A stretch of 32,000 bases of DNA from an uncultured Alphaproteobacteria bacterium (GTDB lineage: Bacteria; Pseudomonadota; Alphaproteobacteria; Rhizobiales; Aestuariivirgaceae): positions 138,218 through 170,217 of the forward strand of contig CAWBJO010000009.1 of assembly GCA_963789175.1 (NCBI GenBank), given 5' to 3'. Position numbers and translations under genes: made by a program. Below the pieces are notes generated by a model. That model had not been told where the DNA came from. It ran no database searches and worked only from the letters and a program-made list of their open reading frames with translations. Below are positions 7,128 to 21,811 of this stretch, piece by piece. How positions within the stretch are numbered: the stretch's first letter is position 1; each line of letters starts with the position of its first letter.

Positions 7128-7156
7128 CCCAGTCATTCCTTTCGTTTGATAGAGCG

Positions 7157-7399
7157 TCAACGAGACGCGAAAATATCGATCGCCTGACCGGCGAGGCCGC
7201 CGAGCGACGCGGAAACGGCGATGAGCACGGCAAGCAGGCGCGATCCGCCGCGCAAGGAAACGAGCGCGTCGCGGATGTCGCGCACGTCGGCGCGCAGCAC
7301 CCGCATCTCCTCCTCGACGGCCAGCAGCCCGACGCGCAGCTCACCGACTTCGCGGTCGATGGAAGCCTTGACGCTCCGGCTGGTCATGCGCGGGCTCAT
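7157..7399 (-). CDS. 80-aa coiled-coil protein with C-terminal TM helix (unknown; lysis or tail-fibre accessory candidate)
   Basis: ATG 7399-7397 overlaps the DUF2793 stop (ATGA). Heptad-like charged region IDREVGELRVGLLAVEEEMRVLRADVRDIRDALVSL, then TM LLAVLIAVSASLGGLAGQAI. No family recognised. Confidence 0.5.
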   Translation of the reverse strand: MSPRMTSRSVKASIDREVGELRVGLLAVEEEMRVLRADVRDIRDALVSLRGGSRLLAVLIAVSASLGGLAGQAIDIFASR

Positions 7400-8736
7400 G
7401 GAGCGAGCCGCTCACCGGCGCGGCACGCCATGCAGCCGACGGAAACACCGCGCCCGGACATGCCTTCGCTCTTCGCGATATCGGCGCCGAAAGCCATCGA
7501 TACGGCACCGGCGAGGGAACGCCGGCCGCCATCCATCTGCCAGCTTCGTCCGTCAGCGGAATAAAAGAAGTCGGCATGCAACCCGTCGGGGCCGATAAAG
7601 ACGCCGAGCCACACCGGCTCGGTGCCGACGACGAGCGAGCCCGATTCCTTGACCACACCGGCCGCGGAGGCCGTGCAGCGCCGCCATGTGGAGGCGAGGT
7701 TCGAATCGTACTCCCACCACGCACCGTTTGCGGGCGAGGAGGAAAGGCCGGCATCGTGCAGGCCGGCCCGGGCAATGAAGCGATCGGGCCAGGCCGACAG
7801 CGTCTCCACGGCGAGGCGCGTCAGGAACAGCACGGCGCCGGATCCCAGCTCCAGCGTGCCGACGGCGCTTCCCAAGCGCGCGGCACCCGCCGCCGTCGTA
7901 CCGGTGAGAACCCTCCAAGCCTGGCCGCCGGTTTCGACACCGGCGTCCGCTCCGCTTTGCGACGCAGCGAGCAGGCCGTGCGACAGCGTGTCGGCGAAGA
8001 CGTCGAACGATGCGCGGAAGCGCCCGCAGGACACATCGACCCAGCACCCGTCCGTCGCATCGTAGGCGAGAGCGATGGTATCGCCCGGCATGAGGACACG
8101 CGGCAGCCGATCGGCGAAGCGGAAGCGGTTGCCGGACGACGAGGCCTCGGACTGGTGAACGAGGATCAGGAGGTTGCCGCCGGCATCCGCCGTCGCGTTG
8201 GTCAGGAGCGCGAGCCGGGTCGGCGCACCGCCCGCAAGACCCGTGACGATGAGGGGAGCGGGCGGCGCGAAGCGGATGTGGGTCGCACGCGAAGGATGGT
8301 CCCCGTTCCATCCCGGCCAATCGAAGTCGTTCCAGGTTCCGGAGGGATCGCAGGTGACCGCGTTGCCCAGTTCGCAGGAGGAATGGAGCGGCGTGGTGCG
8401 GTGCGCCTCCTCCCAGCCGATCGCCGTGCGGATGAGATCGCGCCGCTCGTCGGCGATCCAGGCGCGCCAGCCGTCGCGCGGCGTGAGGAAGGACCAAGCG
8501 CCGTCGGCACGAGCGGCGATCGTGCCGTCACGGCCAGCCCAGTCGCCGCCGGCGCCGGCGGGAACGAGGTAGCGCTCGCCATCGACCGGTGCGGGCGGCG
8601 GCATCGCCGTCGTGCGCGACATGCAGGCGAGGTGAACGAGGGCGTCGAGGCGCAGAAGCGACTCGTTGAGCGTCACGTGCTTCTGCGCCTGGCTGGCGGC
8701 GAGAAAAGGAAGTGCGAGGTTCGGGGTTTCAGACAT
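7396..8736 (-). CDS. DUF2793-domain tail-fibre-like protein, 446 aa
   Basis: Internal ATG at 8736-8734. N-terminus MSETPNLALPFLAASQAQKHVTLNESLLRLDALV...PPPAPVDGERYLVPAGAGGDWAGRDGTIAA..GAWSF..PRDGWRAW is the DUF2793 signature as I remember it. The start overlaps the g15 stop (ATGTCTGA). The 113 upstream codons in the track ORF lie inside g15 in another frame. Confidence 0.8.
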   Translation of the reverse strand: MSETPNLALPFLAASQAQKHVTLNESLLRLDALVHLACMSRTTAMPPPAPVDGERYLVPAGAGGDWAGRDGTIAARADGAWSFLTPRDGWRAWIADERRDLIRTAIGWEEAHRTTPLHSSCELGNAVTCDPSGTWNDFDWPGWNGDHPSRATHIRFAPPAPLIVTGLAGGAPTRLALLTNATADAGGNLLILVHQSEASSSGNRFRFADRLPRVLMPGDTIALAYDATDGCWVDVSCGRFRASFDVFADTLSHGLLAASQSGADAGVETGGQAWRVLTGTTAAGAARLGSAVGTLELGSGAVLFLTRLAVETLSAWPDRFIARAGLHDAGLSSSPANGAWWEYDSNLASTWRRCTASAAGVVKESGSLVVGTEPVWLGVFIGPDGLHADFFYSADGRSWQMDGGRRSLAGAVSMAFGADIAKSEGMSGRGVSVGCMACRAGERLAP

Positions 8737-11700
8737 GCAGGAGGCTTTCGGTCGAGGCGCCGCGGCCATAGGTGGAACTGATCTGGGCGATGCGAACGGC
8801 AAAGGCCGGCTGCAGCGCGCCGAAATCGGCAAGCTCGTCGGCACGCGCATAAACGTATGACGGCGCGTCGACGGCCGCGGCGCGCACCACGACGCCTCCC
8901 GAGAGGATGTCGAGCGCGTAGCGTTCGGCCGGTTCGTCGAGCGGCACGTCGGCGAGCGCCCAGCTGTCGCCGCCATAGCGGGCCTGGCGCGTCCACGCGA
9001 TCTCGGTGTCGCCGTCGGGGCGGCGCCGGGCGCGCGGATGGCAGGGTGCCAGGGGCCGCGCCGCCTTTGCCGCAACGGTGGCCGTCGTCTCGACGTAGGT
9101 CGACTCGCCAGGGCCGTGGCTGCGCGGACCGATGCGCCAGGTGACGGCGAGGCCGGCGTCGGCCGTCTTGAGCGGCAGCTGCAGCAGGCTCGAATCGAGA
9201 AGGACGAAATCCGTGCCCGCCGGCCGCAGGTTCAACATCTCCGGCGCCGAGCCGTGCTGGCCGCGCAACAGTCCCGACAGGCGGTAGGTCGACGGCGCGA
9301 CGAGCTCGGCGACCTCGAACTGAATCACCTCGAAGCCCGTCTCTTCATTTCCGACAGCGGCGAGGTTGGCGCCGGCGAGCAGGCTTTCACGGTCGACGGA
9401 CTGCAAGCCGCCGCGGTCGATGACGACGATCAGCTCGTTCGTCGCATCCCGCCGCCACAACGGTCCCGCCGCGAGGCCGTCCAGCGTCGCACCCAATACG
9501 GACGGCTTGCCGATCGTTCCGGCCAGGACGTATTCGGCTCCCATGCGGCGATAGACGGCAAGGCCGGAGCCCCACGGATCGGCGTCGGCGGCGACCCAGA
9601 GATTCAGGGGCTGATCCGATGCCGCCCAGGGAAGCTCCATCAGGACGGCACGCGGCGCGCCGAAGACGGGCAGGCCGGCAACGGCCGGGGCACGCCGCGC
9701 CGCCGTGGAGGCCGCGGGCGCGGCCGCGACGCTCTCGGAGGCTGTGACGGCGAGCGCCGCACCGGCGGCGATCTCGTCGATGCGCAAGGCCGAAGTGCGG
9801 CCGTCATGGAGAAGCCGCACCGCATCGCCCGGCTCGAGACTGAGGAAGCTCGGCGGCAAGGCGAAAGTCGCGGTCTCACGGCTCGTCCATGCGTCGTGGA
9901 GGACAGCGTCGGCGGCGCGCTGGGCAATCGACTGCGGCAGGATGGCGGGAAGATCGATGAGCGCATCGACGCGGCCGCTCGCGGATTGCCGCCGCGCCTC
10001 GACGACGGCAGTGCGGTAGTCGCGCGCCGTCTCGCGGTAGGCGAGCTTGATGGCGGTGGGGAGGTCGCCGGCCTGGGAGCGCTTGAGCGAGAAGAGCGGC
10101 TTGTCGGCCGCCCGTTCGACGAGATCGCCCGGCGCGACGACGACGCCGGTGGCATCGCGGCGATGGATGAATCGCAAGGTGCCCCCCTGCTCGACGGCGT
10201 CGAAGGCGAAGGACCGCATCAGCGGTTCGAGCGCCGCGCGAGCCGACATCACGCCGTCGATCACGTAGCCGTCGATCACGCCTTCGAGCCCGTCCGTGTC
10301 GAAGGTGGAAAATCCGTATCGCTCGAGAATGCCGGCCACCAGCTCGGCCAGGGGTGCGGAGCCGAGACGGCCGTTCAGCCAATGTCCCGTTTCGTAGTTG
10401 TCGCCGTCCGACCACACGGACGTGAGCGCCGGAAAGGCGGGATGGGGCCGAGCGTCCCAAGCCCACAGGAAGATGCGCGCCGGATCGACCATGGATCCAC
10501 CGTATACGGTGGAAACCGGATTGGCGGGCGATGCGGCGCGCCAGTGACGGATCAACGCCTCGAGGTGGCGGCGCTGCATGAAATCGTCGCGCGCACCCGA
10601 TGAGCCGTAAGGCACGGCGCTCTCGGCCGACTTCGGATCGACGAAGACATTGGGCCCGTTGGCGCCCTTGTCGACGGCCGGGCAGCCGGCCTCGGCGAAC
10701 CAGATGGGTTTCGACTGCGGCACCCAGGGCGTCGGGGCGACCGCACCGGCGATGCGTTCGGCGTGCACGTTGCTCCACCAGCCGCGCAGGTCCTTGGCGC
10801 GATGGACCCACTCGGCGATCGGGGTGCGCAGCTGCGCAGCCCGGTCGGCATCCGAGGCGTAATACCAGTCGTAGTATTCGCTGCCTTCGACATTGGCATC
10901 GAGATAGGCGCGCGCATAGGGCGAAGCATGGCCGGCCAGGCGGTCGAGATGGGTTTCGCCGTCGCGCCAGTCGGCAAGCGGGAAATAGTTGTCGATGGCG
11001 ACGAAGTCGGTATCGGGCGAGGCCCAGACGCGGTCGAGCGGAAAGCGGATGTCGCCCGCACCGTCATCCGGCAAATAGGCTCCGTATTCGCTCCAGTCGG
11101 CGGCATAGGAAATCTTGGCGTTCGGGAGGATGGCGCGAACCTCGCCGGCGAGCGCGACCAGCGCATCGGCGGCCGGAAATCCGCCCGCGCCGTCGCGAAG
11201 ACGCGTCAGGCCGCGGAACTCGCTGCCGAGGAGGAAGGCGTCGACGCCGCCCGCCTCGGCGCACAGGCGCGCATAGTGGTGGATCATGCGCCGCAGACCC
11301 CAGCTCGCCGCGGTTCCGAAGAATGCCGCCACGCCGGCGGCGACGTCGCTTGCGGGCGGCGACGATATGCGTCCGCGCCAGGGAAAGGCGGGCTGCCCGG
11401 ATGCGCCGGTCACTGGATCGGGAAGCGTGTTGCCCGGCGGTATGTCCATGAGAATGAAGGGGTAAAACATCACCGCGAGGCCGCGCGCCTTGAGATCGCG
11501 GATGGCGCGGATGACGGAAGCATCCGACGGCGTGCCGCCGAAGTTCGCACCCGTAGCGCCTTGCGAGATGAGATGCGCCTCGCCGCGGTCGAGGCCGGCG
11601 ACCGACCAGGCATCGGGCTTCGTCGATTTCTGTCGGACTTCGACACCGGGCTTGATGGCGCAATGGCCGCATCGCAAATCGTCGCCGAACCAAGCGACGG

Positions 11701-12517
11701 TGAGCGCCGCCGCCTCGATCGCCGGCGCCATGTCCTGGAGCTGGTCGAGCGAGACCGTCCAATCGGCGACGCCCGCCCCGGTGTGGACGTTCTCCGCCTC
11801 GGTCGCCGCCCGGCCGATGCGCCGCGTCACGATCTCGGTGTCGTAGCCGAACTCGGTCGCCCCGGGGATGATGTCGACGGCACGGATCATGGTTTCCAGC
11901 GCAGCGGTGCGGCGCGTCACCTCGAAGGAGAGCTGCGGCAGCCGGTTGCCGTAGGCGGCGAGCGGCATGCGCTCGAACACGATGTAGGCAAGACCGCGAT
12001 AGGCGGGTGCGGCGTCGGCGCCCTCCTTGGCGAGAATCAGGCCGTCGGGCATCTGGTCCTCGTCGCCGCGGTAAAAGCGCCAGGTGAGGGTGTCGAGGGT
12101 GATCTCCTTGCCATCCGCCCAGACGCGGCCGATGGAAGAGACGGGACCCTCGCAAAGCCCGACGGCGAAGTTCGCGTAGTAGGAATAAGTGGTCGCCGCG
12201 TCCGAGCCGGCGTCGGTTCCCTTCGCGCCGGTGCCGGCGCTGCGCGTCGCCTCCTCCTCGAAGTCGGTCGCCCAGATCACCTGGCCAGCGATGCGGGCCC
12301 TGCCCCACACGACCGGGATCGAAGCACCCTCGCTCGAGCCCATGACGGTGAGATCGTCGAGGCGCGGTCCCTTCGTCGTGCGGCCCTTCCCGAACAGGCG
12401 CGCGTCGGCAAGGCTGCCGATGAGGCCGCCGGCGGCACGACCGAGGATGCCGCCGAGCGGTCCACCCAGCATGCCGCCGACCGCGGACCCGACATATTGA
12501 AGCGCGACGGTCGCCAT
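8729..12517 (-). CDS. GTA host-specificity / baseplate megatron protein (RcGTA g15 homologue), 1262 aa
   Basis: N-terminal glycine-zipper segment. A central glycoside-hydrolase-like TIM-barrel region is typical of GTA g15 (WFGDDLRCGHC..IKPGVE, VIRAIRDLKARGLAVMFYPFILMDI, FLLGSEFRGLT, WFAEAGCPAVDKGANGPN). Long C-terminal phage-tail domain. Size and position after the NlpC/P60 gene both fit. Confidence 0.9.
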   Translation of the reverse strand: MATVALQYVGSAVGGMLGGPLGGILGRAAGGLIGSLADARLFGKGRTTKGPRLDDLTVMGSSEGASIPVVWGRARIAGQVIWATDFEEEATRSAGTGAKGTDAGSDAATTYSYYANFAVGLCEGPVSSIGRVWADGKEITLDTLTWRFYRGDEDQMPDGLILAKEGADAAPAYRGLAYIVFERMPLAAYGNRLPQLSFEVTRRTAALETMIRAVDIIPGATEFGYDTEIVTRRIGRAATEAENVHTGAGVADWTVSLDQLQDMAPAIEAAALTVAWFGDDLRCGHCAIKPGVEVRQKSTKPDAWSVAGLDRGEAHLISQGATGANFGGTPSDASVIRAIRDLKARGLAVMFYPFILMDIPPGNTLPDPVTGASGQPAFPWRGRISSPPASDVAAGVAAFFGTAASWGLRRMIHHYARLCAEAGGVDAFLLGSEFRGLTRLRDGAGGFPAADALVALAGEVRAILPNAKISYAADWSEYGAYLPDDGAGDIRFPLDRVWASPDTDFVAIDNYFPLADWRDGETHLDRLAGHASPYARAYLDANVEGSEYYDWYYASDADRAAQLRTPIAEWVHRAKDLRGWWSNVHAERIAGAVAPTPWVPQSKPIWFAEAGCPAVDKGANGPNVFVDPKSAESAVPYGSSGARDDFMQRRHLEALIRHWRAASPANPVSTVYGGSMVDPARIFLWAWDARPHPAFPALTSVWSDGDNYETGHWLNGRLGSAPLAELVAGILERYGFSTFDTDGLEGVIDGYVIDGVMSARAALEPLMRSFAFDAVEQGGTLRFIHRRDATGVVVAPGDLVERAADKPLFSLKRSQAGDLPTAIKLAYRETARDYRTAVVEARRQSASGRVDALIDLPAILPQSIAQRAADAVLHDAWTSRETATFALPPSFLSLEPGDAVRLLHDGRTSALRIDEIAAGAALAVTASESVAAAPAASTAARRAPAVAGLPVFGAPRAVLMELPWAASDQPLNLWVAADADPWGSGLAVYRRMGAEYVLAGTIGKPSVLGATLDGLAAGPLWRRDATNELIVVIDRGGLQSVDRESLLAGANLAAVGNEETGFEVIQFEVAELVAPSTYRLSGLLRGQHGSAPEMLNLRPAGTDFVLLDSSLLQLPLKTADAGLAVTWRIGPRSHGPGESTYVETTATVAAKAARPLAPCHPRARRRPDGDTEIAWTRQARYGGDSWALADVPLDEPAERYALDILSGGVVVRAAAVDAPSYVYARADELADFGALQPAFAVRIAQISSTYGRGASTESLLHV

Positions 12518-12961
12518 TCATCCGGCCTTGAAGCGGTAGACGTATGCCAGGCGGCGGCGCCACCACGCCGCGAGCGGGATCTCGCAGACGGCGGCACCAC
12601 TCTGGGCGTGGATCATAGTGCGATCGCTCGCCGCGATGCCGGCGTGGCGGGCCGGAAAGCTCGAGCGCCACCGGAAGAGCAGCACCTCCCCGCCGAAGAG
12701 GCTTCGGTGATCGACCGGAACCAGGTGGCGCGCGGCCGCATCGGCGAGAAGCTCGAAGCCGCCTGATTCCGCCCAGGTCGCCGCGTAGGGCGGCGGGTTT
12801 TCCGGCTCGGCGCCGAAGAGGTCGCGATAGACGCCGCGCACGAGACCGAGGCAATCGGCGCCGACGCCGCGAACCGATGCCTGGTGGCGATAGGGCGTGC
12901 CGATCCAGGCCCGCGCGGCGGCGACGACCCGCCGGGAGAGCTCGCGCTCGCTATCGTGCAT
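12518..12961 (-). CDS. NlpC/P60 cell-wall peptidase (RcGTA g14 homologue)
   Basis: WIGTPYRHQASVRGVGADCLGLVRGVY contains the catalytic Cys. A downstream His lies in RHAGIAASDRTMIHAQ. ATG at 12961 overlaps g13 by 11 nt. Its stop abuts the g15 ATG (TGAATG). Confidence 0.85.
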   Translation of the reverse strand: MHDSERELSRRVVAAARAWIGTPYRHQASVRGVGADCLGLVRGVYRDLFGAEPENPPPYAATWAESGGFELLADAAARHLVPVDHRSLFGGEVLLFRWRSSFPARHAGIAASDRTMIHAQSGAAVCEIPLAAWWRRRLAYVYRFKAG

Positions 12962-13820
12962 CGTTCCCCGTCGCGTAGGAGAGCACGAAATCGTTGCCGG
13001 GCATGTGCGGGAAGCCGCGAAAATTTGCGGCGTTGGCAAACTTGGCGCGGCAGGTCGAGAACTGCTTGTCGCATCCGGCGACGACCGTGAAGCCGTCGCC
13101 CGGCACGATCAGCGCCATCGCCGGTTGCCAGAGTTCGAAGACGTCGCGGTCCTGATCGCGGCGATGGGTGAGGATCTCGACGCCGGCGCCGGCGTTGGCG
13201 CCATCGATCCAAGTCAGCCGGCCGCGTGCGAACCAGCCGTCGGCGAACGCGCCGAGGCCGTCGGCCGCGAACCGCGATGGCGAAGCGACCATCGATACCG
13301 TCCCGCCGCCGCAGAACGCCGGAGCGGCGACAGCGACGCCGCAACGCGCATCGCCGAGCTCGGCATCGCAGCCATACTGATAGAGCCGGCCTTGCGGGCG
13401 CGACAGCGCGTGGGCCAGACCGCGCACCTCGGCGACGAACGCCGCACCATCGCGCGCGATCTCGCCGATGGTGCCGGTGCGCATCAGCAGGCGCTGATCG
13501 AGGTCGCGCCAGTTGACGAGCCAGACCTCGAGTGTGGCGTCGTCGAAGCGGCCCGCCGCGAGATCGGAGTCCGACAGGCGGTCGGAGCGCAGGGCGCCGG
13601 CGATCTCGAGATTGTCGACGCCGAGGCCGAGCGAGGCCTGCATCTCGCTTGCCGTGAAGCCCGCCGAGGCCTCGTAGCGTAGACCGTCGACCACCAGGTC
13701 GCGGTCGTGATCGGTGAAGCCGAGAACGCGGCCCGTCGCATCGGAGAGCTTCCAACACCAGCAGAGGGTGGTGGCGCCGCCGTCGAGATGCTCCTGGAGC
13801 CCCGCAGGTAGTACCCTCAT
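12951..13820 (-). CDS. DUF2163 + phage BR0599 domain protein, tail hub (RcGTA g13 homologue)
   Basis: LQEHLDGGATTLCWCWKL...GFTDHDRDL and C-terminal CDKQFSTCRAKFANAANFRGFPHMPG signatures. ATGA overlap with g12. Confidence 0.8.
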   Translation of the reverse strand: MRVLPAGLQEHLDGGATTLCWCWKLSDATGRVLGFTDHDRDLVVDGLRYEASAGFTASEMQASLGLGVDNLEIAGALRSDRLSDSDLAAGRFDDATLEVWLVNWRDLDQRLLMRTGTIGEIARDGAAFVAEVRGLAHALSRPQGRLYQYGCDAELGDARCGVAVAAPAFCGGGTVSMVASPSRFAADGLGAFADGWFARGRLTWIDGANAGAGVEILTHRRDQDRDVFELWQPAMALIVPGDGFTVVAGCDKQFSTCRAKFANAANFRGFPHMPGNDFVLSYATGNDAR

Positions 13821-14461
13821 ACGCGCAGCTCGACGATCGGAATGTCGGGGACCTCGCCGGCGCCGAAGCCGACGAGGCCGATCTCGAGGAAGTCGGTATC
13901 GAAGCGCACCGGCGTGTCGAACTCGAAGCCGGCCGTAACCGCCTGACCCGCGGCCGGAACGGAACTCGGAAAGAAGGTCACGAGGCCGGTTGCCGCATCG
14001 AGCACGTAGTGCTCATCCGCGGTCCTGCGAACCCCCGCGACGGCGACGACTACGGTCTCGCTCAGCGGCTTGCGGACCGGGCGGACATAGGCCGACGGTC
14101 CGACGCCATAGATCTTGCGCAGCTCGAAGGCCGCGGTCGCGCCGTCGCCCATGCCGAGCTCCTGATCGGCGTCGGAAACGGAGCGGCCCGACCGGCAGGA
14201 CCTGAAGTCGGCATGGTCGCGCCAGCGAAAACCATAGAGGCGGCCGCGGCGTTCCTCGAAGAAGGCGACGACGGCATGGATGTCGTCGAGAGACCGCACG
14301 CCGTAGCCGGCATTGTAACGTCGCCTCGCATGGGCCCAGCGCGAGTTGCGCTCCTCGAAACCCGAGCCAAGCGCGACGATCTCGGTGCGGCGTTCCGGTC
14401 CACCGCGGGCACCGCGCGAGATGGCGGACGGGAAGCGCACCTCGTGAAAGGCGGGACTCAT
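13817..14461 (-). CDS. DUF2460 distal tail protein (RcGTA g12 homologue)
   Basis: FHEVRFPSAISRGARGGPERRTEIVALGSGFEERNSRWAHARRRY matches the DUF2460/TIGR02217 pattern. ATGA overlap with g11. Confidence 0.8.
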   Translation of the reverse strand: MSPAFHEVRFPSAISRGARGGPERRTEIVALGSGFEERNSRWAHARRRYNAGYGVRSLDDIHAVVAFFEERRGRLYGFRWRDHADFRSCRSGRSVSDADQELGMGDGATAAFELRKIYGVGPSAYVRPVRKPLSETVVVAVAGVRRTADEHYVLDAATGLVTFFPSSVPAAGQAVTAGFEFDTPVRFDTDFLEIGLVGFGAGEVPDIPIVELRV

Positions 14462-15045
14462 CGGTTGCGTTGCCCCCGCTCGACGGCGCGAGCGAGCGCG
14501 GCGGCGATCTGCTGCTCGGAGCGACGGAAGCTCTCGGCATCGCTTGTCGTGATGTTCATGGTGACGGATACCGACGATGCGGCACCGGCCCGCACGCCGA
14601 GTTTGCCGTCGCTCGAGCGTGCCAGCGGCAGGATGGCCTCGGCTCCCTTCTCGCCCATGAGTCCCATGCCGGAATTCAGCGGAAACAATGTGGGGCCGTT
14701 GACGATGCCGCCCGACGCGAAGGCACGGATGCGTCCGGCGCTCACCACATTGCCTTTTGCATTGGCGAGGACGGCACCGAGAGCGCCGCCGAACAGATTG
14801 CCGGCGGCGTCGGACAGCGGCCGCAGGGCGGCCGCGAGAGCACGACTGCCAAGGCTCTGCACGAGCGATCGCAGGACGCCCGACAATTTGCGCCCGTCGG
14901 CCGCCGCGGCAAGGAAGGCGCCGCTCATGGCGGCGCCGAAGTTTTCGCCCAGCCGCGTCAGACCGGCGAGATCGCGGCTCAGCCCGTCAGTCGGGATTTT
15001 GGAGAACGCATGCTCGGTATCGGGCATCGATCTAGCCTCGGCCAT
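14458..15045 (-). CDS. short tail tape measure protein (RcGTA g11 homologue), 195 aa
   Basis: Position between chaperones and distal tail protein. Ala/Gly/Leu-rich helical sequence FGAAMSGAFLAAAADGRKLSGVLRSLVQSLGSRALAAALRPL is typical of GTA tape measures. ATG 15045 overlaps g10.1 by 14 nt. An alternative ATG lies at 15027. Confidence 0.75.
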   Translation of the reverse strand: MAEARSMPDTEHAFSKIPTDGLSRDLAGLTRLGENFGAAMSGAFLAAAADGRKLSGVLRSLVQSLGSRALAAALRPLSDAAGNLFGGALGAVLANAKGNVVSAGRIRAFASGGIVNGPTLFPLNSGMGLMGEKGAEAILPLARSSDGKLGVRAGAASSVSVTMNITTSDAESFRRSEQQIAAALARAVERGQRNR

Positions 15046-15226
15046 CGGGGAAACGCATCATCAGGGCTTCGAGCGCCGTGCGTTCGAGACGGGCGGCCGG
15101 AGCGTGGCAGTAGGCCGACAGCGCGGCCTCGAGCTCGCGCGGCGTCATGGCCCAGAAATCGCGGGGCGGCAGGCGCAGGAGGCCGAGACCGAGCTGCATC
15201 ACACGGCGCCAGGGAAATGCCGGCAC
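15032..15226 (-). CDS. rcc01693-family tail assembly chaperone (RcGTA g10.1 homologue), 64 aa
   Basis: FPWRRVMQLGLGLLRLPPRDFWAMTPRELEAAL matches the conserved FPW...GLG.L.L.P..FW.MTPREL pattern. GTG at 15226 lies 2 nt after the g10 stop, with an alternative ATG at 15199. The frame is -1 relative to g10 and stays open through all of g10. Confidence 0.65.
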   Translation of the reverse strand: MPAFPWRRVMQLGLGLLRLPPRDFWAMTPRELEAALSAYCHAPAARLERTALEALMMRFPDGRG

Positions 15227-15228
15227 GG

Positions 15229-15558
15229 TCACTCGCGTCCCGGCTCCGGCGCGAACGTCGCGGTCAGGAGGCGCATGACGATCTCGACGTAACCCGGGGC
15301 GCCGCGCGGCGATACGAGGCGTGCGACCTCGTCGTCGCCAACGTCGTTGCCGCCACCCCGCAGGCCGGCGCCGAGCACGCGGATGGCGTCGCGGGCACCG
15401 ATGCGCCCTGATTCGAACTTCTCGGCAAGAGCGAGGATGTCGGCGCCGCCGAAGGCCGATTCGAGCTCGGCCAGGGCCCCGAGCGTCAGACACAGGCGCC
15501 ATGTGCGGCCGCCGAGCTCGGCCGCGATCTCGCCGCGATGCAGGTTCGCCACCGTCAC
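15229..15558 (-). CDS. GTA-family tail assembly chaperone (RcGTA g10 homologue)
   Basis: HRGEIAAELGGRTWRLCLTLGALAELESAFGGADILALAEKFESGRIGARDAIRVLGAGLRGGG is the conserved GTA g10 pattern. GTG start overlaps the g9 stop (GTGA). Confidence 0.7.
   Translation of the reverse strand: MTVANLHRGEIAAELGGRTWRLCLTLGALAELESAFGGADILALAEKFESGRIGARDAIRVLGAGLRGGGNDVGDDEVARLVSPRGAPGYVEIVMRLLTATFAPEPGRE
15292..15298 (-). other. candidate -1 slippery heptamer C-CCG-GGT in g10 (formal X-XXY-YYZ pattern)
   Basis: On the minus strand g10 reads GCC CCG GGT. A -1 slip would enter the g10.1 frame, which has no stop from here to 15032. G/C-only heptamers are atypical, hence the low confidence. Confidence 0.2.
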
Positions 15559-15968
15559 AGGACCTCGAAGGTGAGCTCACCGGCGGATTCGAGCGCCAAC
15601 TCGAAGGTGATTTCGCCATCATGGGACGCCGCGTATTCGAGGGCGGCAACCTGGAACGGACCGGTGATGCGTCCGAAATCGGGGACCACCACCTGCCAGT
15701 CGCGAATGGCGCCCGAGAAGAACACGTCGCGCACGGCGGCATCCGACTGCGCATCGCAGAAGACGCCGGCACCGCGGATGCTCGCCTGGCGCACGCCGGC
15801 GCCCTCGAGCAGCGTCCGCCAAGCGCCGGCCGATTCCTGGTGCGTGGCGTCGACCGTCTGGGCATTGAGGGCAAGGCCATGGGTGCGAAGACCCCCGACG
15901 GTCGCGAAGGCGCCGCCCGGCTCGGCGGCCAACTTCAACAACAGGTCGCGGCCGCGTTGTGCCGTCAT
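15555..15968 (-). CDS. major tail (tube) protein (RcGTA g9 homologue), 137 aa
   Basis: Internal ATG at 15968 (ATGA overlap with g8). The sequence LLLKLAAEPGGAFATVGGLRTHGLALNAQTVDATHQESAGAWRTLLEGAGVRQASIRGAGVF...EITFELALESAGELTF matches the GTA/TP901-1-type major tail pattern. Confidence 0.8.
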   Translation of the reverse strand: MTAQRGRDLLLKLAAEPGGAFATVGGLRTHGLALNAQTVDATHQESAGAWRTLLEGAGVRQASIRGAGVFCDAQSDAAVRDVFFSGAIRDWQVVVPDFGRITGPFQVAALEYAASHDGEITFELALESAGELTFEVL

Positions 15969-16393
15969 GTCTCCTCCCTCGGATCCTGGGTCACGATGCG
16001 CAGACGCATGAGACCGTGATAGCGTTCGTTCTCCAGCTCGTGGACCACCGTCCAGAAGACCGGCCGCACCGTGACGACGCGATGCGGCTCGGCATCGAGG
16101 CCGTCGGTCGCGAGCAGCGCGTCGATCGCCGCGATGGCGTCGAGCGCGAGCTTGCGGCCGTGTCCGGCGGTCCACACGTGCAGGACCGCCATGTGCTCGT
16201 GACCACGGCTCGTCTGGGTGCTCCAGTCGCGCGTCTCGACTTCGCCCACCATCGCGAATGGAAGCGGGCCGTCGGCCGGAACGTTGTCGTAGACGCGGCC
16301 GGCCAGGATGGCGGCGACGCCGGGATCGCCGAGCAGCCGGCGGCGCAGCGCCGTCTGGACGGCAAGCGTCGCGTTCACAAGCGTCGCGTTCAT
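15965..16393 (-). CDS. DUF3168 tail terminator protein (RcGTA g8 homologue), 142 aa
   Basis: Internal ATG at 16393 (ATGA overlap with g7). LRRRLLGDPGVAAILAGRVYDNVPADGPLPFAMVGEVETRDWST...HEHMAVLHVWT fits the DUF3168 pattern. Confidence 0.75.
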   Translation of the reverse strand: MNATLVNATLAVQTALRRRLLGDPGVAAILAGRVYDNVPADGPLPFAMVGEVETRDWSTQTSRGHEHMAVLHVWTAGHGRKLALDAIAAIDALLATDGLDAEPHRVVTVRPVFWTVVHELENERYHGLMRLRIVTQDPREET

Positions 16394-16713
16394 GGGCCGA
16401 CGACCTCGCTGCAGTAGCAGATGGACCATCGCCGCCGCGCCGTGCCGGGAAACACGGCGACGATGTCGAACACCCGTCCCGACGCCGCAAAGCGCATGGC
16501 GGGCGCGAGGTCGGCGCGGTAGCGCAGGCGGACGCGATGGGTGAGCCTGGAGCGCATCGCCGCCGCGACGGGACTTTCGCCGCCCGACATCGCCTCGACG
16601 TTCGCCCAGACGGAGTCGCGCAGCCGCCAGGCCACCTCGCGCCCGCCAGAGTCGTTCCACACGGACTCCGGCGCCTCGAGCGCCAGGCGCTGGTTCAAGT
16701 CGGCGATCCTCAT
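16390..16713 (-). CDS. head-tail stopper / head-closure protein (SPP1 gp16-like; RcGTA g7 homologue), 107 aa
   Basis: Internal ATG at 16713 (ATGA overlap with g6). LTHRVRLRYRADLAPAMRFAASGRVFDIVAV...RRRWSICYCSE matches the conserved C-terminal pattern of this family. Confidence 0.75.
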   Translation of the reverse strand: MRIADLNQRLALEAPESVWNDSGGREVAWRLRDSVWANVEAMSGGESPVAAAMRSRLTHRVRLRYRADLAPAMRFAASGRVFDIVAVFPGTARRRWSICYCSEVVGP

Positions 16714-17267
16714 GCCAAGCGGACCGGCAGATAGGAGGAGACGAGCGAGGCCACGTGCGGTCCCGCCGCCGCTTCGCGGTTCTCGTACCAGGCGGCGACG
16801 AGCGCGCACACGGCATGGCGCAGGGTCGGCGGCACGTCGACCGGTGCGGAGCCGAAGCCGGCCCGGAAGGTCACCTCGATACCGCCACGCTCACGTCCCG
16901 GCCGCGGCCACATGCGATCGCGGCGCCTGACCAGCTCCGCCGGACGCTGCGCGTTGTCGAGATAGTAGTGGGCAGGATCGACGCGTTGGCCTTCGTCGTC
17001 CTCGCCCCACACCATGAGCTCGAGGATGCCGGCGACCGGCCAGCGCGGCAGCGCAACGGATGCAACTGCCGGCCAGGCGTCGAGCGACAGCCGCCATGTC
17101 TGGTCGATGAGGGCGAGGCCGGTGAGGAGCTCGACCTGCTCGCGGGCGGAAGCCACGAGCGAAGCGACGAGCTCGTCCTCATGGTCGCCATCGAGCCTCA
17201 GCCACGCCTTCGCATCGGCAAGCGTCACGGGTTCCGCCGCCGGCGGACCGGTCAGGATCAAAGTCAT
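16710..17267 (-). CDS. gp6-like head-tail connector / adaptor (RcGTA g6 homologue)
   Basis: EPVTLADAKAWLRLDGDHEDELVASLVASAREQVELLTGLALIDQTWRLSLDAWP is the classical phage gp6-like connector N-terminus. ATG 17267 with GGAAGA upstream. Confidence 0.8.
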   Translation of the reverse strand: MTLILTGPPAAEPVTLADAKAWLRLDGDHEDELVASLVASAREQVELLTGLALIDQTWRLSLDAWPAVASVALPRWPVAGILELMVWGEDDEGQRVDPAHYYLDNAQRPAELVRRRDRMWPRPGRERGGIEVTFRAGFGSAPVDVPPTLRHAVCALVAAWYENREAAAGPHVASLVSSYLPVRLA

Positions 17268-17283
17268 GTCGATGGTCTTCCGA

Positions 17284-18537
17284 TCAGGCGGCGATCTTCA
17301 GAAGCTTCGCGGCTTCGAAGTTCTGCACGCCGCCGCCGACGCGCTTCGTCGTGTAGAAGAGCACGTAGGGCTTGGCGGAATAGGGATCGCGGAGGATGCG
17401 CACGCCGAGACGGTCGACGATGAGATAAAAGCTGCGGAAGTCGCCGAAGGCCAGCGGAAACGCATCGGGCGCGATGGACGGCATGGCTTCGGCTTCGACG
17501 ATGGGAAAGCCGAGGAGCGATGCCGGCGCGCCGGCCGCGGCGGCCGGCTGCCAGAGATAGTCGCCGTCGGCATTCTTGATCTTGCGGATCTCGTTCTGGG
17601 TGCGGCGGTTCATGACAAAGCTGGCGCCCTGGCGGTAGCCCGCCTTCACCGCATATATGATGTTGAGAAGGACATCGGCCGGCGCGGCGGGTGCGAAACC
17701 CGCGGCGGCGCCGGTCGCCACGTAACCGACGTTGCTCCAGGTCCAGCCGCCGTCGGCAGTCTTCGGATAGTTGAGGAAGCCGCGCGGGCGCGCCACGCCG
17801 TCACCATTGACGAAGGCCTCGGTCTCCTGCTCGGCGAAGGCCGCCTGCACCTCTTCGGCAATCCAGCGGTCGATGTCGACGGCCGCGTCGTCGAGGAGCG
17901 TCTGGGTGGCGGCAGGCATGGCGTAGATCTCCATGGCCGGAAACTGAAGCTCGGCGAGCGACGGGCCGGCGGTCTCCGGCCTGGCGGCCGTCTCGCCCAC
18001 CCAACCGGTGGCTGCGCCGGCGATGGCGAAAGGCTTCTTGTAGACGGCGGCGGAGATGTGGCGGACGGTCGCGACCGCGCGCAGCGGCGAAGCCTGGCGC
18101 AGGAGCCGGCCGATCTCCGTCTCGGTCTCTTCGGGAACGAGGTAGCCGCCGTCGGGGCCCGAACCGGAGGTGAGGCTCTTCGCCTCGAGATCGACCAGGC
18201 CCGTCGCCTCGCCCCGGCGCATATAAAGCGCGAAGGCCTGCTTGTGCTCGCTCACCTCGCAAGAGCCATGCGGCGAGCCGCGGTCGAGCGGCGGGCGGCG
18301 GCCCTTGATGGCGAGCTCGTCGAGCCGGGACTTGTGCTCGGCGACGGCGCGGTTCAGCCGCTCCACCTTTTCCTCGGTCACGACGTCGGCGGTCATGCGA
18401 CGCTCGATCTCCTGAAGCCGGCGGTCGTTCGCCTCCTTGAAAGCCTCGAAGCTGTGCATGAAGCCGCCATAGGCCGCGTCGATCTCGGCATGGTCCGGCA
18501 CGACCTTGGTTTCGAGCGGCAGGTTCAATTCTTTCAT
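17284..18537 (-). CDS. HK97-fold major capsid protein with N-terminal delta/scaffold domain (RcGTA g5 homologue), 417 aa
   Basis: Internal ATG at 18537 (ATGA overlap with the protease stop). Coiled-coil N-terminal region FKEANDRRLQEIERRM...VERLNRAVAEHKSRLDEL. GPDGGYLVPEE motif and C-terminal FYTTKRVGGGV are typical of HK97-family capsids. Confidence 0.9.
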   Translation of the reverse strand: MKELNLPLETKVVPDHAEIDAAYGGFMHSFEAFKEANDRRLQEIERRMTADVVTEEKVERLNRAVAEHKSRLDELAIKGRRPPLDRGSPHGSCEVSEHKQAFALYMRRGEATGLVDLEAKSLTSGSGPDGGYLVPEETETEIGRLLRQASPLRAVATVRHISAAVYKKPFAIAGAATGWVGETAARPETAGPSLAELQFPAMEIYAMPAATQTLLDDAAVDIDRWIAEEVQAAFAEQETEAFVNGDGVARPRGFLNYPKTADGGWTWSNVGYVATGAAAGFAPAAPADVLLNIIYAVKAGYRQGASFVMNRRTQNEIRKIKNADGDYLWQPAAAAGAPASLLGFPIVEAEAMPSIAPDAFPLAFGDFRSFYLIVDRLGVRILRDPYSAKPYVLFYTTKRVGGGVQNFEAAKLLKIAA

Positions 18538-18992
18538 CTTTTCCTCGCTTTGCTGAAGACGTCGTCGGGGCCGGGACGGAGCACGGGCCGGGCGACCCGG
18601 GCAGAGCCCTGCATGGGGAAGGTCACGAGCGAGATTTCCCAGAGGTCGATGCTCGCAAGCTCGCGGATGCCGGCTGTGCGGCGGTGGTTGGCGGCCAGGG
18701 TTCGAAATCCGATGGACAGTCCGTCGACGGCGCCGTCGCAGAGCAGCGCGGCGATGTCGCGAACGCGGGCCGACCCCAGGGACAGGCGCCCCTCGGCGAA
18801 CAGGCCGCGCGCATCCTCGACGAGCCGCGTCCACACGCCGATCGGCTCGCCATGATCGTGCTGGAACAGCATGCGCACGTCGGCCGCAGGCCGCCGGCGG
18901 AGGCATGCCGCAAAGGCGCCGGGCAGCACGAGGTCGCCGACGCCGTCGACGATGCCGAACCGGCTCGCATATCCGCAAATGGACAGAGTCAC
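18534..18992 (-). CDS. HK97-family prohead protease (RcGTA g4 homologue), 152 aa
   Basis: GTG at 18992-18990, 5 nt after the portal TAG. ICGYASRFGIVDGVGDLVLPGAF, MLFQHD..PIGVW, DGLSIGF and LWEISLVTFP are the S78 protease motifs. The rest of the 544-aa track ORF overlaps the portal gene in another frame and is not coding. Confidence 0.85.
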   Translation of the reverse strand: MTLSICGYASRFGIVDGVGDLVLPGAFAACLRRRPAADVRMLFQHDHGEPIGVWTRLVEDARGLFAEGRLSLGSARVRDIAALLCDGAVDGLSIGFRTLAANHRRTAGIRELASIDLWEISLVTFPMQGSARVARPVLRPGPDDVFSKARKR

Positions 18993-18997
18993 CGAAC

Positions 18998-20209
18998 CTA
19001 CAGCCGGTCGCCGCCCGGAACCGGCGCGTAGCCGATCGCCTGGCGCTTCTCGTTCAAGGTCAGGAAGCTCGCCTTCTCGACGCGGCTCCACAGCGCTTCG
19101 CGCTCGGTCGACAATGCCTCGATACCGTCCATATCCGGCGCGAGGACGAGTCCGGACCCGAATGCCGGGCCGAGCCAGCGCGCCATCGCCCGCGCGGTGC
19201 GGTTGACGAGCGGGAGGATCGTCTGCCGCCAGAAGGTGCGGTTGGCCTCGGCATAGTTCGCGTAGGTGTTGTCGCCGGGAATGCCGAGCAGCATGGGCGG
19301 CACGCCGAAAGCGAGGGCGATGTCGCGCGCGGCGGCATGCTTGGCCTCGATGTGCTCCATGTCCTTGGGACTCAGAGCCATCTCCTTCCAGTCGAGGCCG
19401 CCTTCGAGGAGGAGCGGCCGGCCGGCGTTGACGGCGCCCTGGTAGGTTTGCTCGAGCTCGCGCTTCAACCGTGCGAACTGGCCCTCGCTCAGGTTCTCGC
19501 TGCCCGGCGGTCCGCGATAGACGAGCGCGCCGGAGGGCCTGGCGCTGTTGTCCAACAGCGCCTTGTTCCAGGCCGCCGCCTCGTTGTGGATGTCGACACT
19601 CGCGGCGGCGGGCGCGAAGGGCGAAAGACCGTAATGATCGCTGACGGGATCGAAGAGCCGCAGGTGAAGGATGGGCTCGACGTCGTTCGACGCGTCCTGC
19701 CGGTAGCGCACGACTCGACCGGAGACCGAATATTCGTAGGCGTCCGGCCAGCCGTCCGGCCCCGGCACGACCTTCATCCGATCGGAGCGGAGCACGTGCA
19801 GCTCGCGGACCGTGCCTTTCACCGCGACCGCCTCGGCATAGGCGTTGCCGGTGACGAGCAGCTGCCCATAGAGAGCCTCGCTCCAGCTCTGGCCGTCGGC
19901 ATGGGCGTTCGGGCAGCCGATGAGGTCGAGCAGCGGATGGGCGCCATGCTCTCGCCGCCCCTCGAAGAGCAGCCAGGGAACGGACGCCGCGGCTTCGGCG
20001 ATCATGCGCACGCAACGATAGCCCACCGGATTGGCGGCGAAGCCCTCGCGCGCGAAGGCGGTCGCGTTGCGGGCCGACCAGCGCGGCCGGCGGCGGGCCT
20101 CGAGCGCGACGAGCGGCACCGGCATTCCGTTCTTCGTCTCGACGCGCGGAACGGCGGACGAAAGCCAACCCTTCATGCGCGACACGACTGCCATCATTCC
20201 AAGCTCCAT
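18998..20209 (-). CDS. HK97-family portal protein (RcGTA g3 homologue), 403 aa
   Basis: Start ATG 20209 is preceded by CCGGAGGGCCTG and overlaps the TerL stop (TGATG). An alternative ATG lies at 20176 (MKGWL). YRCVRMIAEAAASVPW, LLVTGNAY, NEAAAWNKALLDN and FGVPPMLLGIPGDNTYANY are typical portal blocks. Confidence 0.9.
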   Translation of the reverse strand: MELGMMAVVSRMKGWLSSAVPRVETKNGMPVPLVALEARRRPRWSARNATAFAREGFAANPVGYRCVRMIAEAAASVPWLLFEGRREHGAHPLLDLIGCPNAHADGQSWSEALYGQLLVTGNAYAEAVAVKGTVRELHVLRSDRMKVVPGPDGWPDAYEYSVSGRVVRYRQDASNDVEPILHLRLFDPVSDHYGLSPFAPAAASVDIHNEAAAWNKALLDNSARPSGALVYRGPPGSENLSEGQFARLKRELEQTYQGAVNAGRPLLLEGGLDWKEMALSPKDMEHIEAKHAAARDIALAFGVPPMLLGIPGDNTYANYAEANRTFWRQTILPLVNRTARAMARWLGPAFGSGLVLAPDMDGIEALSTEREALWSRVEKASFLTLNEKRQAIGYAPVPGGDRL

Positions 20210-21534
20210 CAGGCCCTCCGGATGCGCGGGTCGCCGGACTGACGCAACAGCATCAGCTCGGTGAGCGCCCACACAAGGGCGTCGAGGCGGTCCGGGCTGG
20301 CGCCGCCGGCGGCATCGGAACCGAAGGCGCACATCTCGTCCTCGAGGCGGGGGAAGCTGCCGACATGCGAGATGCGGTGCTGCTCATAGAGCGTGGCGAC
20401 GGGCTCGGCGCGCAGATGCTTGCCGCGACTGGCGCGCACGGCGCGCACCGGCAGCGCGGCATCTACAGTGCGCAGCACGTTCGCCACCAGGTCGCCGCCC
20501 TGGTTGACCTCGGCGACGACGAGGTTGGCATCGAGGTCGTGATAGAGCTTCACCGCGGCGCGCGCCCAGGTGAGCGGCGCCACGCCCTGCATGGTGCGGT
20601 CGGCGAGAACATAGCCGCGGCCATCCTCGCCGAGTCCGGCGGCGACGATGCCGCAGGCGTCGGCATCCTCCCCTGCCGTCACCGGCGGATCGATGGCGAC
20701 GACGATGCGCTGAAGCTCCGGGTGCTCGGCGACGCGCGTCGCGTCGATGACGGCGCGGGAGAAGAGCGCATTCGGATTGTCGTCGAGCACCTCGCCGTCG
20801 AGCTCCTGGCGGCCGAGGCGCGAGCCGCCATAGAGCGCGTTGAGGTCGGCAAGGAAGGTCGGGGCGAGATTGTCGGCATTGTCGAAGGTGCGGCTGCGCG
20901 TGACGTGCACGGAGGAATCGGCGAGAAGCTTGCGGATAAGCGGAATGGGACGCGGCGTCGTGGTCACGACCTGGCGGGGACGGCGGCCGAGCCGCAATCC
21001 AAACTGCAGCATGTCCCAGGTCTCGTTCGGATATCGCCACTTGGCGAGCTCGTCGCACCAGGCGAGATGGAACTGGGGTCCGCGCAGGAGCTCGGGCCGT
21101 TCGGCGGAAAAGAGCTGCGCCACGGAGCCGTTGGGAAACACCATCTCGCGGCGCGACGGGAAGTAGCGCGGCCGCTCGCGGTCGGCATGGACGGCGAGCA
21201 GCCCGGAGTTGCCTTCGATCATCACCGCCCTGCCCTCATGCAGGCTCGGAGCCACGAGCGCCACGCGCAGCTCGTGCCCGGCATAGCGCATGGCATAGCG
21301 AACCCACTCGGCGCCGGTGCGGGTCTTGCCGGCGCCGCGGCCGCCGAGCAGAAGCCAGACGCGCCAGTCGGCATGCGGCGCGAGCTGGTCTTCGCGAGCC
21401 CAGAGCGGCCAGTCATTGATCATCCACTCCCGGGCCGGCGGCGGCTGCGCCATCAGCCTGTCGATCGCCTCCCCGGCGAGGCCGCTCTCGGCACACAGAC
21501 GCAACAGCGTCTTCAAGTTTCGCCCTGAGGGCAT
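20209..21534 (-). CDS. terminase large subunit (RcGTA g2 homologue)
   Basis: Walker A WLLLGGRGAGKTRTGAEW, CDELAKW (Walker B-like), and a C-terminal nuclease region IDPPVTAGEDADACGIV...VAEVNQGGD. Start set at ATG 21534 (GAGAGGACG upstream). An alternative ATG 21423 (GGGAGTGG upstream) would shorten it by 37 aa. Confidence 0.9.
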   Translation of the reverse strand: MPSGRNLKTLLRLCAESGLAGEAIDRLMAQPPPAREWMINDWPLWAREDQLAPHADWRVWLLLGGRGAGKTRTGAEWVRYAMRYAGHELRVALVAPSLHEGRAVMIEGNSGLLAVHADRERPRYFPSRREMVFPNGSVAQLFSAERPELLRGPQFHLAWCDELAKWRYPNETWDMLQFGLRLGRRPRQVVTTTPRPIPLIRKLLADSSVHVTRSRTFDNADNLAPTFLADLNALYGGSRLGRQELDGEVLDDNPNALFSRAVIDATRVAEHPELQRIVVAIDPPVTAGEDADACGIVAAGLGEDGRGYVLADRTMQGVAPLTWARAAVKLYHDLDANLVVAEVNQGGDLVANVLRTVDAALPVRAVRASRGKHLRAEPVATLYEQHRISHVGSFPRLEDEMCAFGSDAAGGASPDRLDALVWALTELMLLRQSGDPRIRRA

Positions 21535-21811
21535 CGTCCTCTCGCTGCTGATCGGATCCCGACAGGCGCGTCTTGGGCGGCAGGGACGGACCGAACTGCC
21601 GATCAACCATGCGCGAGAGCGCCGTCAGGCTGCGCAAATAGCGGTCATAGACGTCGGGATCGTAGTGGTCGGGAAGCTTCGGCAGGAAATCGACTAATTT
21701 CCGGGCGAGATGGCGCAGGCAGGGGCGGATGTTCTCAGCCGGGTGGTCGTCGATCGACAACGCGATTTCGCCGTCCGGCAAGGCGCCGTCCGCGCGTTCA
21801 GGGTCTGACAT
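21413..21811 (-). CDS. candidate GTA g1 / small-terminase-position protein, 132 aa (no family recognised)
   Basis: First gene of the operon. The true ATG is at 21811 (the track start at 21814 is a TTG). The first roughly 90 aa have a natural composition (DHPAENIRPCLRHLARKLVDFLPKLPDHYDPDVYDRYLRSL). The last roughly 40 aa overlap TerL and are Arg/Gly/Ala-rich. Confidence 0.45.
   Translation of the reverse strand: MSDPERADGALPDGEIALSIDDHPAENIRPCLRHLARKLVDFLPKLPDHYDPDVYDRYLRSLTALSRMVDRQFGPSLPPKTRLSGSDQQREDDALRAKLEDAVASVCRERPRRGGDRQADGAAAAGPGVDDQ

Follow-up and report, generated by a model that had tools for sequence, protein, structure and literature searches.

Closest described systems and the locus under study

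The gene transfer agent (GTA) of Rhodobacter capsulatus, RcGTA, is encoded by genes g1 to g15 (rcc01682-rcc01698) and is the closest described system to an element found in an uncultured Alphaproteobacteria bacterium of the family Aestuariivirgaceae. The window, which is the whole stretch of DNA analysed here, spans 32,000 nucleotides (nt) of assembly GCA_963789175.1 (contig CAWBJO010000009.1, positions 138,218 to 170,217), has a GC content of approximately 65-70% and is part of contig C9 in a genome of 3.81 Mb and 10 contigs. On its minus strand, between 8729 and 21811, lies a complete RcGTA-type head-tail operon of 16 genes, recognised from open reading frames (ORFs) and their Pfam and NCBIfam matches. 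The region is very probably a domesticated, vertically inherited RcGTA-type GTA in a Hyphomicrobiales chromosome. It shares with RcGTA the gene order, a short tape measure protein, chromosomal vertical inheritance and a candidate GafA-type activator in the genome; its g1 product may, to judge from a structural model, also resemble the small helical RcGTA protein without a DNA-binding domain (PMC6854486). Unlike RcGTA, the window cluster has no g3.5, carries a fibre gene (DUF2793) as well as endolysin and holin genes joined in cis to the operon, and is accompanied by a GafA-like gene that lies 6.7 kb away and is of the shorter Hyphomicrobiales type. Protein identities between the two are too low for blastn-level similarity, and function is proven for RcGTA and predicted for the window cluster.

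True phages that carry an RcGTA-like structural module are also known, among them siphovirus MW202777 and Desulfofustis phage LS06-2018-MD02, which have the same module order from the terminase to the megatron protein and whose large terminase (TerL) also has the proline and cysteine pair discussed below. These phages differ from the window in their genome size of 45-46 kb, as compared with about 16 kb for the element described here, and in having non-structural genes, extra head genes, a tape measure of about 700 amino acids (aa) rather than 195 aa, and a 190-aa small terminase that is unrelated to g1; they also fall outside the TerL and capsid clades of the window. The megatron, hub, distal tail and fibre-anchor chains of the Protein Data Bank (PDB) entry 8GTC are the second-best structural matches of the window proteins, and this entry presumably represents roseophage R4C.

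The clusters predicted by GTA-Hunter in Rhizobiales are the same kind of object as the one described here, which nests among such clusters in both the TerL and the capsid tree; in the summary table of that survey RcGTA-like clusters are listed for 155 of the 300 Rhizobiales entries, or 52% (Kogay et al. 2019, PMC6821227). Other Hyphomicrobiales clusters share the chromosomal slot of the window, and many of them have a long g1 in contrast to its short form. The GTA of Caulobacter crescentus (CcGTA) belongs to a different order and has a different cluster organisation; published accounts describe a split GafA-type activator (GafYZ) and lytic production in the stationary phase (PMC11150451, PMC9632790). 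The GTA_megatron model that recognises g15 of the window also picks up Caulobacter vibrioides, a proven GTA producer included in the control set, but the DnaA-like GafY-type partner was not found in the genome of the window. BaGTA of Bartonella is likewise a GTA of the Hyphomicrobiales, described as an independent domestication of other phages that is coupled to run-off replication (bioRxiv 10.1101/2024.11.20.624540). No head-tail gene of the window belongs to BaGTA.

The head-tail operon

All 16 genes lie on one strand in g1-g15 order, which is that of the lines below, and families were assigned to 15 of them with Pfam and NCBIfam:

21413..21811, minus strand: g1, candidate small terminase, 132 aa, short form, placed by its position and an iterative profile link
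20209..21534, minus strand: g2, large terminase TerL, 441 aa (alternative start at 21423), Terminase_6N and Terminase_6C
18998..20209, minus strand: g3, portal, 403 aa, Phage_portal (E = 7e-86), best PDB match the RcGTA portal Rcc01684 (E = 4e-126)
18534..18992, minus strand: g4, HK97-type prohead protease, 152 aa, GTG start, Peptidase_S78 (E = 1e-27)
17284..18537, minus strand: g5, HK97-type major capsid protein, 417 aa, Phage_capsid (E = 1e-91), best PDB match RcGTA Rcc01687 (E = 5e-94)
16710..17267, minus strand: g6, head-tail adaptor, 185 aa, TIGR02215 over its full length (E = 8e-52)
16390..16713, minus strand: g7, head completion protein (stopper), 107 aa, Phage_HCP (E = 3e-22)
15965..16393, minus strand: g8, tail completion protein (terminator), 142 aa, Tail_completion_gp17 (E = 8e-27)
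15555..15968, minus strand: g9, tail tube protein (TP901-1-type), 137 aa, Phage_tail_2 (E = 1e-41), sole and best PDB match RcGTA Rcc01691 (E = 4e-44)
15229..15558, minus strand: g10, tail assembly chaperone, 109 aa, Phage_TAC_11 (GTA-gp10; E = 1e-26)
15032..15232, minus strand: g10.1, rcc01693-family chaperone, 66 aa, Phage_TAC_6 (E = 5e-20) and TIGR02216 (71 bits against a cut-off of 56)
14458..15045, minus strand: g11, short tape measure protein, 195 aa, NF058675 RcGTA_tape (E = 5e-50, 170 bits)
13817..14461, minus strand: g12, distal tail protein (Rcc01695 family), 214 aa, DUF2460 (E = 4e-80), best PDB match RcGTA Rcc01695 (E = 1e-74)
12951..13820, minus strand: g13, baseplate hub, 289 aa, TIGR02218 (E = 1e-89), best PDB match the RcGTA hub (E = 5e-69)
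12518..12961, minus strand: g14, NlpC/P60 cell-wall peptidase, 147 aa, TIGR02219 (E = 4e-55)
8729..12517, minus strand: g15, megatron baseplate and host-specificity protein, 1262 aa, NF048004 GTA_megatron (1637 bits against a cut-off of 800)

An initial annotation of this DNA had counted seventeen co-oriented genes in RcGTA order; the order and the strand are upheld, and the count is 16 with g3.5 absent. The portal gene stops at 18998 and the GTG start of the protease gene follows five bases on at 18992, so that there is no g3.5 between them, and several relatives likewise lack this gene. Homology of the protease with its relatives begins exactly at the GTG at 18992. A 115-aa ORF at 18623-18970 was considered as a seventeenth gene and dismissed, as it is contained within the protease gene in a different frame and has nothing in its favour. 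At least ten start/stop overlaps had been claimed, and 12 of the 15 junctions do overlap: eight share the 4 nt of an ATGA or GTGA and the rest overlap by 1, 11, 14 and 122 nt, the longest being the g1/TerL junction, which would shorten to 11 nt with the TerL start at 21423. Among the remaining junctions one abuts and the other two leave gaps of 5 and 16 nt. The flanks are housekeeping genes as originally described, with a ycgN-like CxxCxxCC protein and a class A penicillin-binding protein (PBP) on one side and an OmpR-type response regulator and a histidine kinase on the other.

The reading frames are indeed all intact, with profiles covered almost end to end. TerL retains its Walker A (GGRGAGKT, residue 64), Walker B (LAWCDE, 157) and TTT (191) motifs and the nuclease aspartate in AIDPP (280), and the protease keeps the histidine in FQHDH and the serine in GLSIGF. 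g15 contains the GTA_TIM, Phage-tail_3 and Rcc01698_C domains at full length without stops, and in the PDB its top match is the RcGTA megatron (E = 9e-266). For the capsid, portal, tail tube, distal tail, hub and megatron proteins alike the RcGTA particle is the best PDB match, far ahead of any phage (entries 6TBA, 6TB9 and 6TEH, E-values from 4e-44 to 9e-266). The PHROG profiles of phage tape measures that the tape measure protein matches are 900-1900 positions long, and it aligns only to their C-terminal 100-130 positions. g5 is the sole HK97-type capsid gene of the genome and the cluster is single-copy.

Judged by its gene content, this one translationally coupled operon is predicted to encode everything needed for a small siphovirus-like particle. 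The predicted modules comprise packaging (g1-g2), the head (portal, protease and capsid), the neck (g6-g8), a short tail whose length is set by the 195-aa tape measure (g9-g11) and the baseplate (g12-g15).

Phylogenetic position

Trees were built by quick searches with support from the Shimodaira-Hasegawa-like approximate likelihood ratio test (SH-aLRT) only, using 72 rows for TerL and 41 for the capsid. In the TerL tree the window falls in a clade of 13 chromosomal clusters (support 97), in which every row with a family label belongs to the family of the window; this clade is in turn nested in a 45-row clade without phages (support 84). In the capsid tree the clade that includes the window comprises 33 chromosomal clusters (support 98); all seven phage capsids fall outside it, two of which come from true phages carrying the whole RcGTA-like structural module. 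The chromosomal clades of both trees follow taxonomy. The initial annotation had proposed that TerL and capsid be placed against the GTA clade and true phages, and neither protein groups with bona fide phages. Of 41 relatives 30 have a TerL homologue, as do 67 of 201 genomes of the class, nearly always a single one per genome and without internal stops. The closest named relatives are metagenome-assembled genomes labelled Aestuariivirgaceae, Parvibaculaceae or Hyphomicrobiales, and the nearest homologues are 54-69% identical in TerL and capsid.

Two further groupings were seen in these trees. One is a set of about 17 chromosomal homologues of TerL in other orders (L076-L094) that have the 'viral' pair of alanine and threonine (see below) and branch near the phages in the TerL tree; they may represent prophages or another lineage of GTAs. 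The capsid of Methylocystis silviterrae (L025) is 45% identical to that of the window and groups with the capsid of a 43-kb myovirus outside the GTA clade; by this placement its locus is probably a prophage.

Chromosomal context and synteny

No tRNA lies near the cluster, the flanking direct repeats that could be found are only of chance level, and none of the flanking ORFs contains an integrase, repressor, replication or methylase domain. The initial annotation, which had seen no integrase, repressor or Cro, replication or methylase gene and no flanking direct repeats, is thus correct on these points. It had also raised the possibility of an integrase and att pair just outside the window, and none is present nearby: a search for tyrosine recombinases, which did not extend to serine recombinases, found none on the 731-kb contig and placed the five of the genome on other contigs.

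For the comparison of gene order, nine genomes of the same and other families of the order were each represented by 40 kb surrounding the TerL homologue, named loci from the capsid search were added, and every window protein was mapped onto these regions. The slot consisting of the class A PBP, ycgN, the cluster, the DUF2793 gene, the response regulator and the kinase is kept in no fewer than 10 genomes, from this family and from others. In a genome from a different genus (G001) the full 32-kb gene order is kept, including the lysis genes and the group of mucR, PAS_5, DUF6456 and sufE genes. The occupation of one chromosomal slot across such divergence indicates that the cluster has been inherited vertically. 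The cluster genes are intact in the syntenic genomes, across genera and families with 35-60% protein divergence. The interval from ycgN to TerL, which in the window holds just the candidate promoter and g1, contains approximately 6.8 kb of additional DNA in one genome of the same family (G024, contig C64, loci L038 and L039).

Residue, composition and selection signatures

Two residues of the TerL nuclease domain that lie ten positions apart are proline and cysteine in GTAs (Pro 282 and Cys 292 in RcGTA) and mostly alanine and threonine in viruses (Esterman et al., PMC7947584). TerL of the window has Pro284 and Cys294, with the RcGTA numbering mapped by spacing and context. Among the chromosomal TerL rows the proline is present in 44 of 63 and the cysteine in 46 of 63, and all order-level clusters carry both; the sampled phage TerLs have mostly alanine and threonine at these positions.

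GTA regions have been reported to be GC-richer than their host genomes through codon positions 1 and 2 (Kogay et al., PMC7360931). The cluster has a GC content of 69.4% against 64.2% for the genome, which places it at the 99.7th percentile of 13-kb windows. By codon position the values for cluster and genome are 0.713 and 0.665 (GC1), 0.521 and 0.469 (GC2) and 0.845 and 0.850 (GC3); the excess is confined to the first two positions, with an effect of about one standard deviation per position. The carbon content of the side chains is only slightly low (37th percentile). The initial annotation had asked for the ratio of nonsynonymous to synonymous substitution (dN/dS): in pairwise comparison with two family members it is below 1 in every gene (0.12-0.68), much as in the flanking PBP1A and kinase genes, and these values are only rough upper bounds because the nearest relatives are 55-67% identical and dS is saturated.

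Fibre and lysis genes beyond g15

The GTA unit is larger than 8729-21811. The low-coordinate boundary first assigned to the cluster was too tight, as four more coupled genes follow g15 and extend the unit through fibre and lysis genes to about 5938:

7396..8736, minus strand: DUF2793 tail-fibre gene, 446 aa, DUF2793 (E = 4e-29) and PHROG tail-fibre families, overlapping the g15 stop by 8 nt
7157..7399, minus strand: 80-aa ORF, coupled by ATGA, kept after the DUF2793 gene in G001 and G024
6408..7160, minus strand: glycoside hydrolase family 24 (GH24) endolysin, up to 250 aa, Phage_lysozyme (E = 9e-42) and PHROG endolysin (E = 9e-56), conserved in G001
5938..6555, minus strand: holin-like ORF, start uncertain, PHROG 3427 holin (E = 2e-14, residues 99-186 of a 205-aa frame), also in G001 and G019

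The DUF2793 gene follows g15 in most relatives, and the N-terminal 120 aa of its product match chain S of the phage tail entry 8GTC, which is labelled 'Ribonuclease III' (E = 1e-16). The 80-aa ORF, the endolysin gene and the holin-like ORF are each coupled to the preceding gene. The product of the 80-aa ORF has no family among Pfam, NCBIfam and PHROG.

The small terminase candidate

Residues 1-37 of TerL align in many relatives and its start is therefore probably at 21534, giving the long form of the protein and the 122-nt overlap with g1 (21413-21534). Both frames of this overlap are apparently conserved. The overlap recurs in the relatives, where the stop codon of g1 falls 47-137 nt into the TerL alignment. 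An iterative profile search seeded with g1 recruits ORFs upstream of TerL in relatives, and these g1-family ORFs have in common a helical core and a C-terminal 'DDalRaELarRL' motif. An AlphaFold2 model of g1 built on the g1-family alignment comprises three helices (25-45, 52-73 and 85-109) without a helix-turn-helix (HTH), with a mean predicted local distance difference test score (pLDDT) of 70. This architecture agrees with the description of RcGTA gp1; random packaging has been proposed to result from the absence of a DNA-binding domain in that protein (PMC6854486). g1 was rejected as a recognisable small terminase, since it has no family in Pfam, NCBIfam or PHROG, hhalign finds no similarity between the g1 family and the small terminase of the RcGTA-like phages (probability 0.2%), and a Foldseek search of the model against the PDB returns no match below E = 1. 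The small-terminase role consequently rests on position, the iterative profile link and the helical architecture, from which it may reasonably be inferred that g1 is the probable small terminase of the cluster.

In many Hyphomicrobiales clusters g1 takes a long form whose N-terminus bears a conserved HTH-like domain (DWxxIRxxY ... W-P-R, with weak HTH_7 and Terminase_5 matches), examples being L009:5893-6480, L014:4768-5295, L010:5844-6323 and L012:3657-4343. A short g1 without the HTH-like domain is found in the window and in L001, L004, L005, L016 and G008, several of which are from the same family. It can tentatively be proposed, as a rather doubtful possibility, that g1 exists in two natural forms in the order and that the short form has lost the HTH-like domain; if the long form recognises DNA, many Hyphomicrobiales clusters may package with some sequence preference and the lineage of the window fully at random. 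If this were true, the long and short g1 would provide a natural series to test whether the loss of the terminase DNA-binding domain makes a GTA, and the dimorphism is a possible follow-up for specialists.

Candidate regulators and DNA uptake

Two features of the window are candidates for the control of the operon:

28480..29343, minus strand: candidate GafA-type activator, 287 aa, DUF6456 (E = 1.5e-41), 6.7 kb upstream of g1 and between mucR and sufE
21855..21883, minus strand: candidate promoter TTGACA-N17-TAGGTT upstream of g1, read from the sequence, with a putative function

In published accounts, GafA homologues are annotated as DUF6456 and the gafA of Hyphomicrobiales sits between mucR and sufE (PMC9638019, PMC9765227). 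The window shows exactly this published synteny, and a GafA-like gene is also linked to the GTA cluster in G001, G008, G039 and G026. No family match was found for the N-terminal 120 residues of the GafA-like protein, and no solved structure was found in the PDB for this protein or its PAS_5 neighbour. A DnaA-like partner gene is usual beside gafA in the order and is present in G026 and G039; in the window a PAS_5-domain gene holds that position. The GafA neighbourhood of the window occupies 28480-29343, 29458-29997 and 30126-30605, all on the minus strand. In another order of the class (L067, G184:C35) a DUF6456 GafA-like region lies directly upstream of g1-TerL, so that the activator is attached to the operon.

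Counterparts of the candidate promoter with the form TTGACA-N17-TAnnnT lie upstream of g1 in G001, G039, G026, L010, L013 and L022. The promoter is not listed in a generic promoter scan owing to its weak -10 hexamer. A 12-mer, GGGCACGACGGA, occurs upstream of both g1 (21823-21834) and the gafA-like gene (29403-29414), where it abuts a promoter-like TTGACT-N17-TAAATC. The genome holds four copies, of which the other two are apparently inside coding sequence as judged from context, and 2 of 300 shuffles reach this length. The 12-mer was not retained as a shared operator or GafA box because no common word is found in four relatives, and it may be due to chance.

The genome encodes a CtrA orthologue that is 85% identical to a Caulobacter CtrA sequence as well as ComEC and DprA homologues. 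All three are common and therefore do not discriminate. For the CtrA box (TTAA-N7-TTAA) the window has near-matches only at 26271-26285 and 27411-27425, with one mismatch each, near genes for a peptidoglycan-binding protein and a DUF5330 protein.

Proposed function and alternative explanations

By analogy with RcGTA and CcGTA, the GafA-type activator would fire the promoter upstream of g1 in a few stationary-phase cells, downstream of a CtrA relay. TerL, together with a small terminase without a specific DNA-binding domain, would then fill heads by a headful mechanism with random host DNA, in pieces that would be shorter than the 13-16 kb cluster. The producer cell would lyse by means of the linked holin and endolysin, and the particles would inject their DNA into sister cells for uptake and recombination; the genome does encode homologues of ComEC and DprA. 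Having no means of moving itself, the element would persist only by vertical descent and host-level selection.

The assignment to the GTA class was made by phylogeny, synteny, signature residues and composition. That this is a domesticated GTA and not a decaying prophage, as the initial annotation had it, is supported by the two trees, the fixed slot, the intact genes and their dN/dS below 1, the short tape measure, the TerL residues, the GC1 and GC2 values and the GafA-type gene. A number of results weigh against it. A g3.5 homologue is found nowhere in the genome; the RcGTA_tape match of g11 (170 bits) falls short of the curated 220-bit cut-off; and the similarity searches with g1 returned no terminase. 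No CtrA box with one mismatch or fewer lies near g1 or gafA, and a genome search for the DnaA-like GafY-type partner of the GafA-like gene gave only DnaA itself. The endolysin matches the BgtA model of BaGTA at 159 bits, which is below the cut-off of 315. The saturation of dS limits what can be read from dN/dS, and a literature search returned no report of an RcGTA-type Hyphomicrobiales cluster that makes transducing particles. Finally, 9 of 25 family genomes no longer have TerL and roughly a third of the genera of the family have lost the cluster, which shows that it is dispensable.

This dispensability, the missing g3.5 and the high divergence of g1 would fit a silent phage relic that is inherited vertically, makes no working particles in this lineage and has had too little time to decay. 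Such a relic is improbable, as none of the 16 genes or of the fibre and lysis genes is disrupted, the orthologues have likewise stayed intact in genera and families at 35-60% protein divergence, dN/dS is below 1 throughout and the catalytic residues of TerL and the protease are kept; the GC1 and GC2 signature moreover implies continuing selection on the proteins. Scarcely more probable is a conserved phage-derived particle that is selected for something other than gene exchange, such as killing, biofilm remodelling or the release of DNA for repair or nutrition. The benefit of GTAs is debated: Caulobacter GTAs are reported to aid stationary-phase survival and DNA repair (PMC9632790), and the RcGTA tailspike is described as degrading biofilm (bioRxiv 10.64898/2026.07.19.739414). 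The peptidase, the TIM-barrel hydrolase-like domain of the megatron and the lysis cassette of the cluster would suit such a particle, but the full packaging machine is kept (the ATPase and nuclease motifs of TerL, the portal and g1), which a DNA-free killing particle would not need, and the uptake genes ComEC and DprA are present.

The least probable explanation by some way is a temperate prophage that works or became defective only recently, or a phage satellite, which in either case can still mobilise itself. True phages with the same structural module order do exist, and the TerL identity to them (51-54%) is near that to the family-level GTA homologues (54-60%). Against this, replication, lysogeny, integrase and att features are missing from the window and the contig, the slot is fixed across families, both trees exclude the phages, the tape measure is truncated, and the element measures about 16 kb where the related phages reach 45 kb. 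A domesticated GTA remains much the best explanation of the locus.

Relation to other clusters and database records

As RcGTA-type clusters are widespread in Alphaproteobacteria and occur in about half of the sampled Hyphomicrobiales, the window adds a member to a known class rather than a new concept. It is a clean, compact and intact example in a poorly sampled lineage, its host being the sole representative of its genus in the genome collection. With the fibre gene, the lysis genes and a candidate GafA-type activator linked to the operon, it would be a convenient test case for GTA function in the Hyphomicrobiales if the host can be cultured. In the family of the window nearly the whole GTA set (activator, structural operon, fibre and lysis genes) lies in one syntenic block of approximately 24 kb, which may be closer to the layout of the ancestral prophage than the scattered RcGTA loci.

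The comparison set also exposes two mislabelled 'phage' GenBank records. MW091529 and MW462191 are the top 'phage' database matches of the cluster, and were set aside as a sign of phage origin because they are bacterial contigs with the same flanks. Both are filed as 'Bacteriophage sp.' (MW091529.1, locus L056, and MW462191.1, locus L057) and contain a GTA cluster with chromosomal flanks that include the PBP, the two-component system and ccm genes. In both the TerL and the capsid tree they group with Phyllobacterium.

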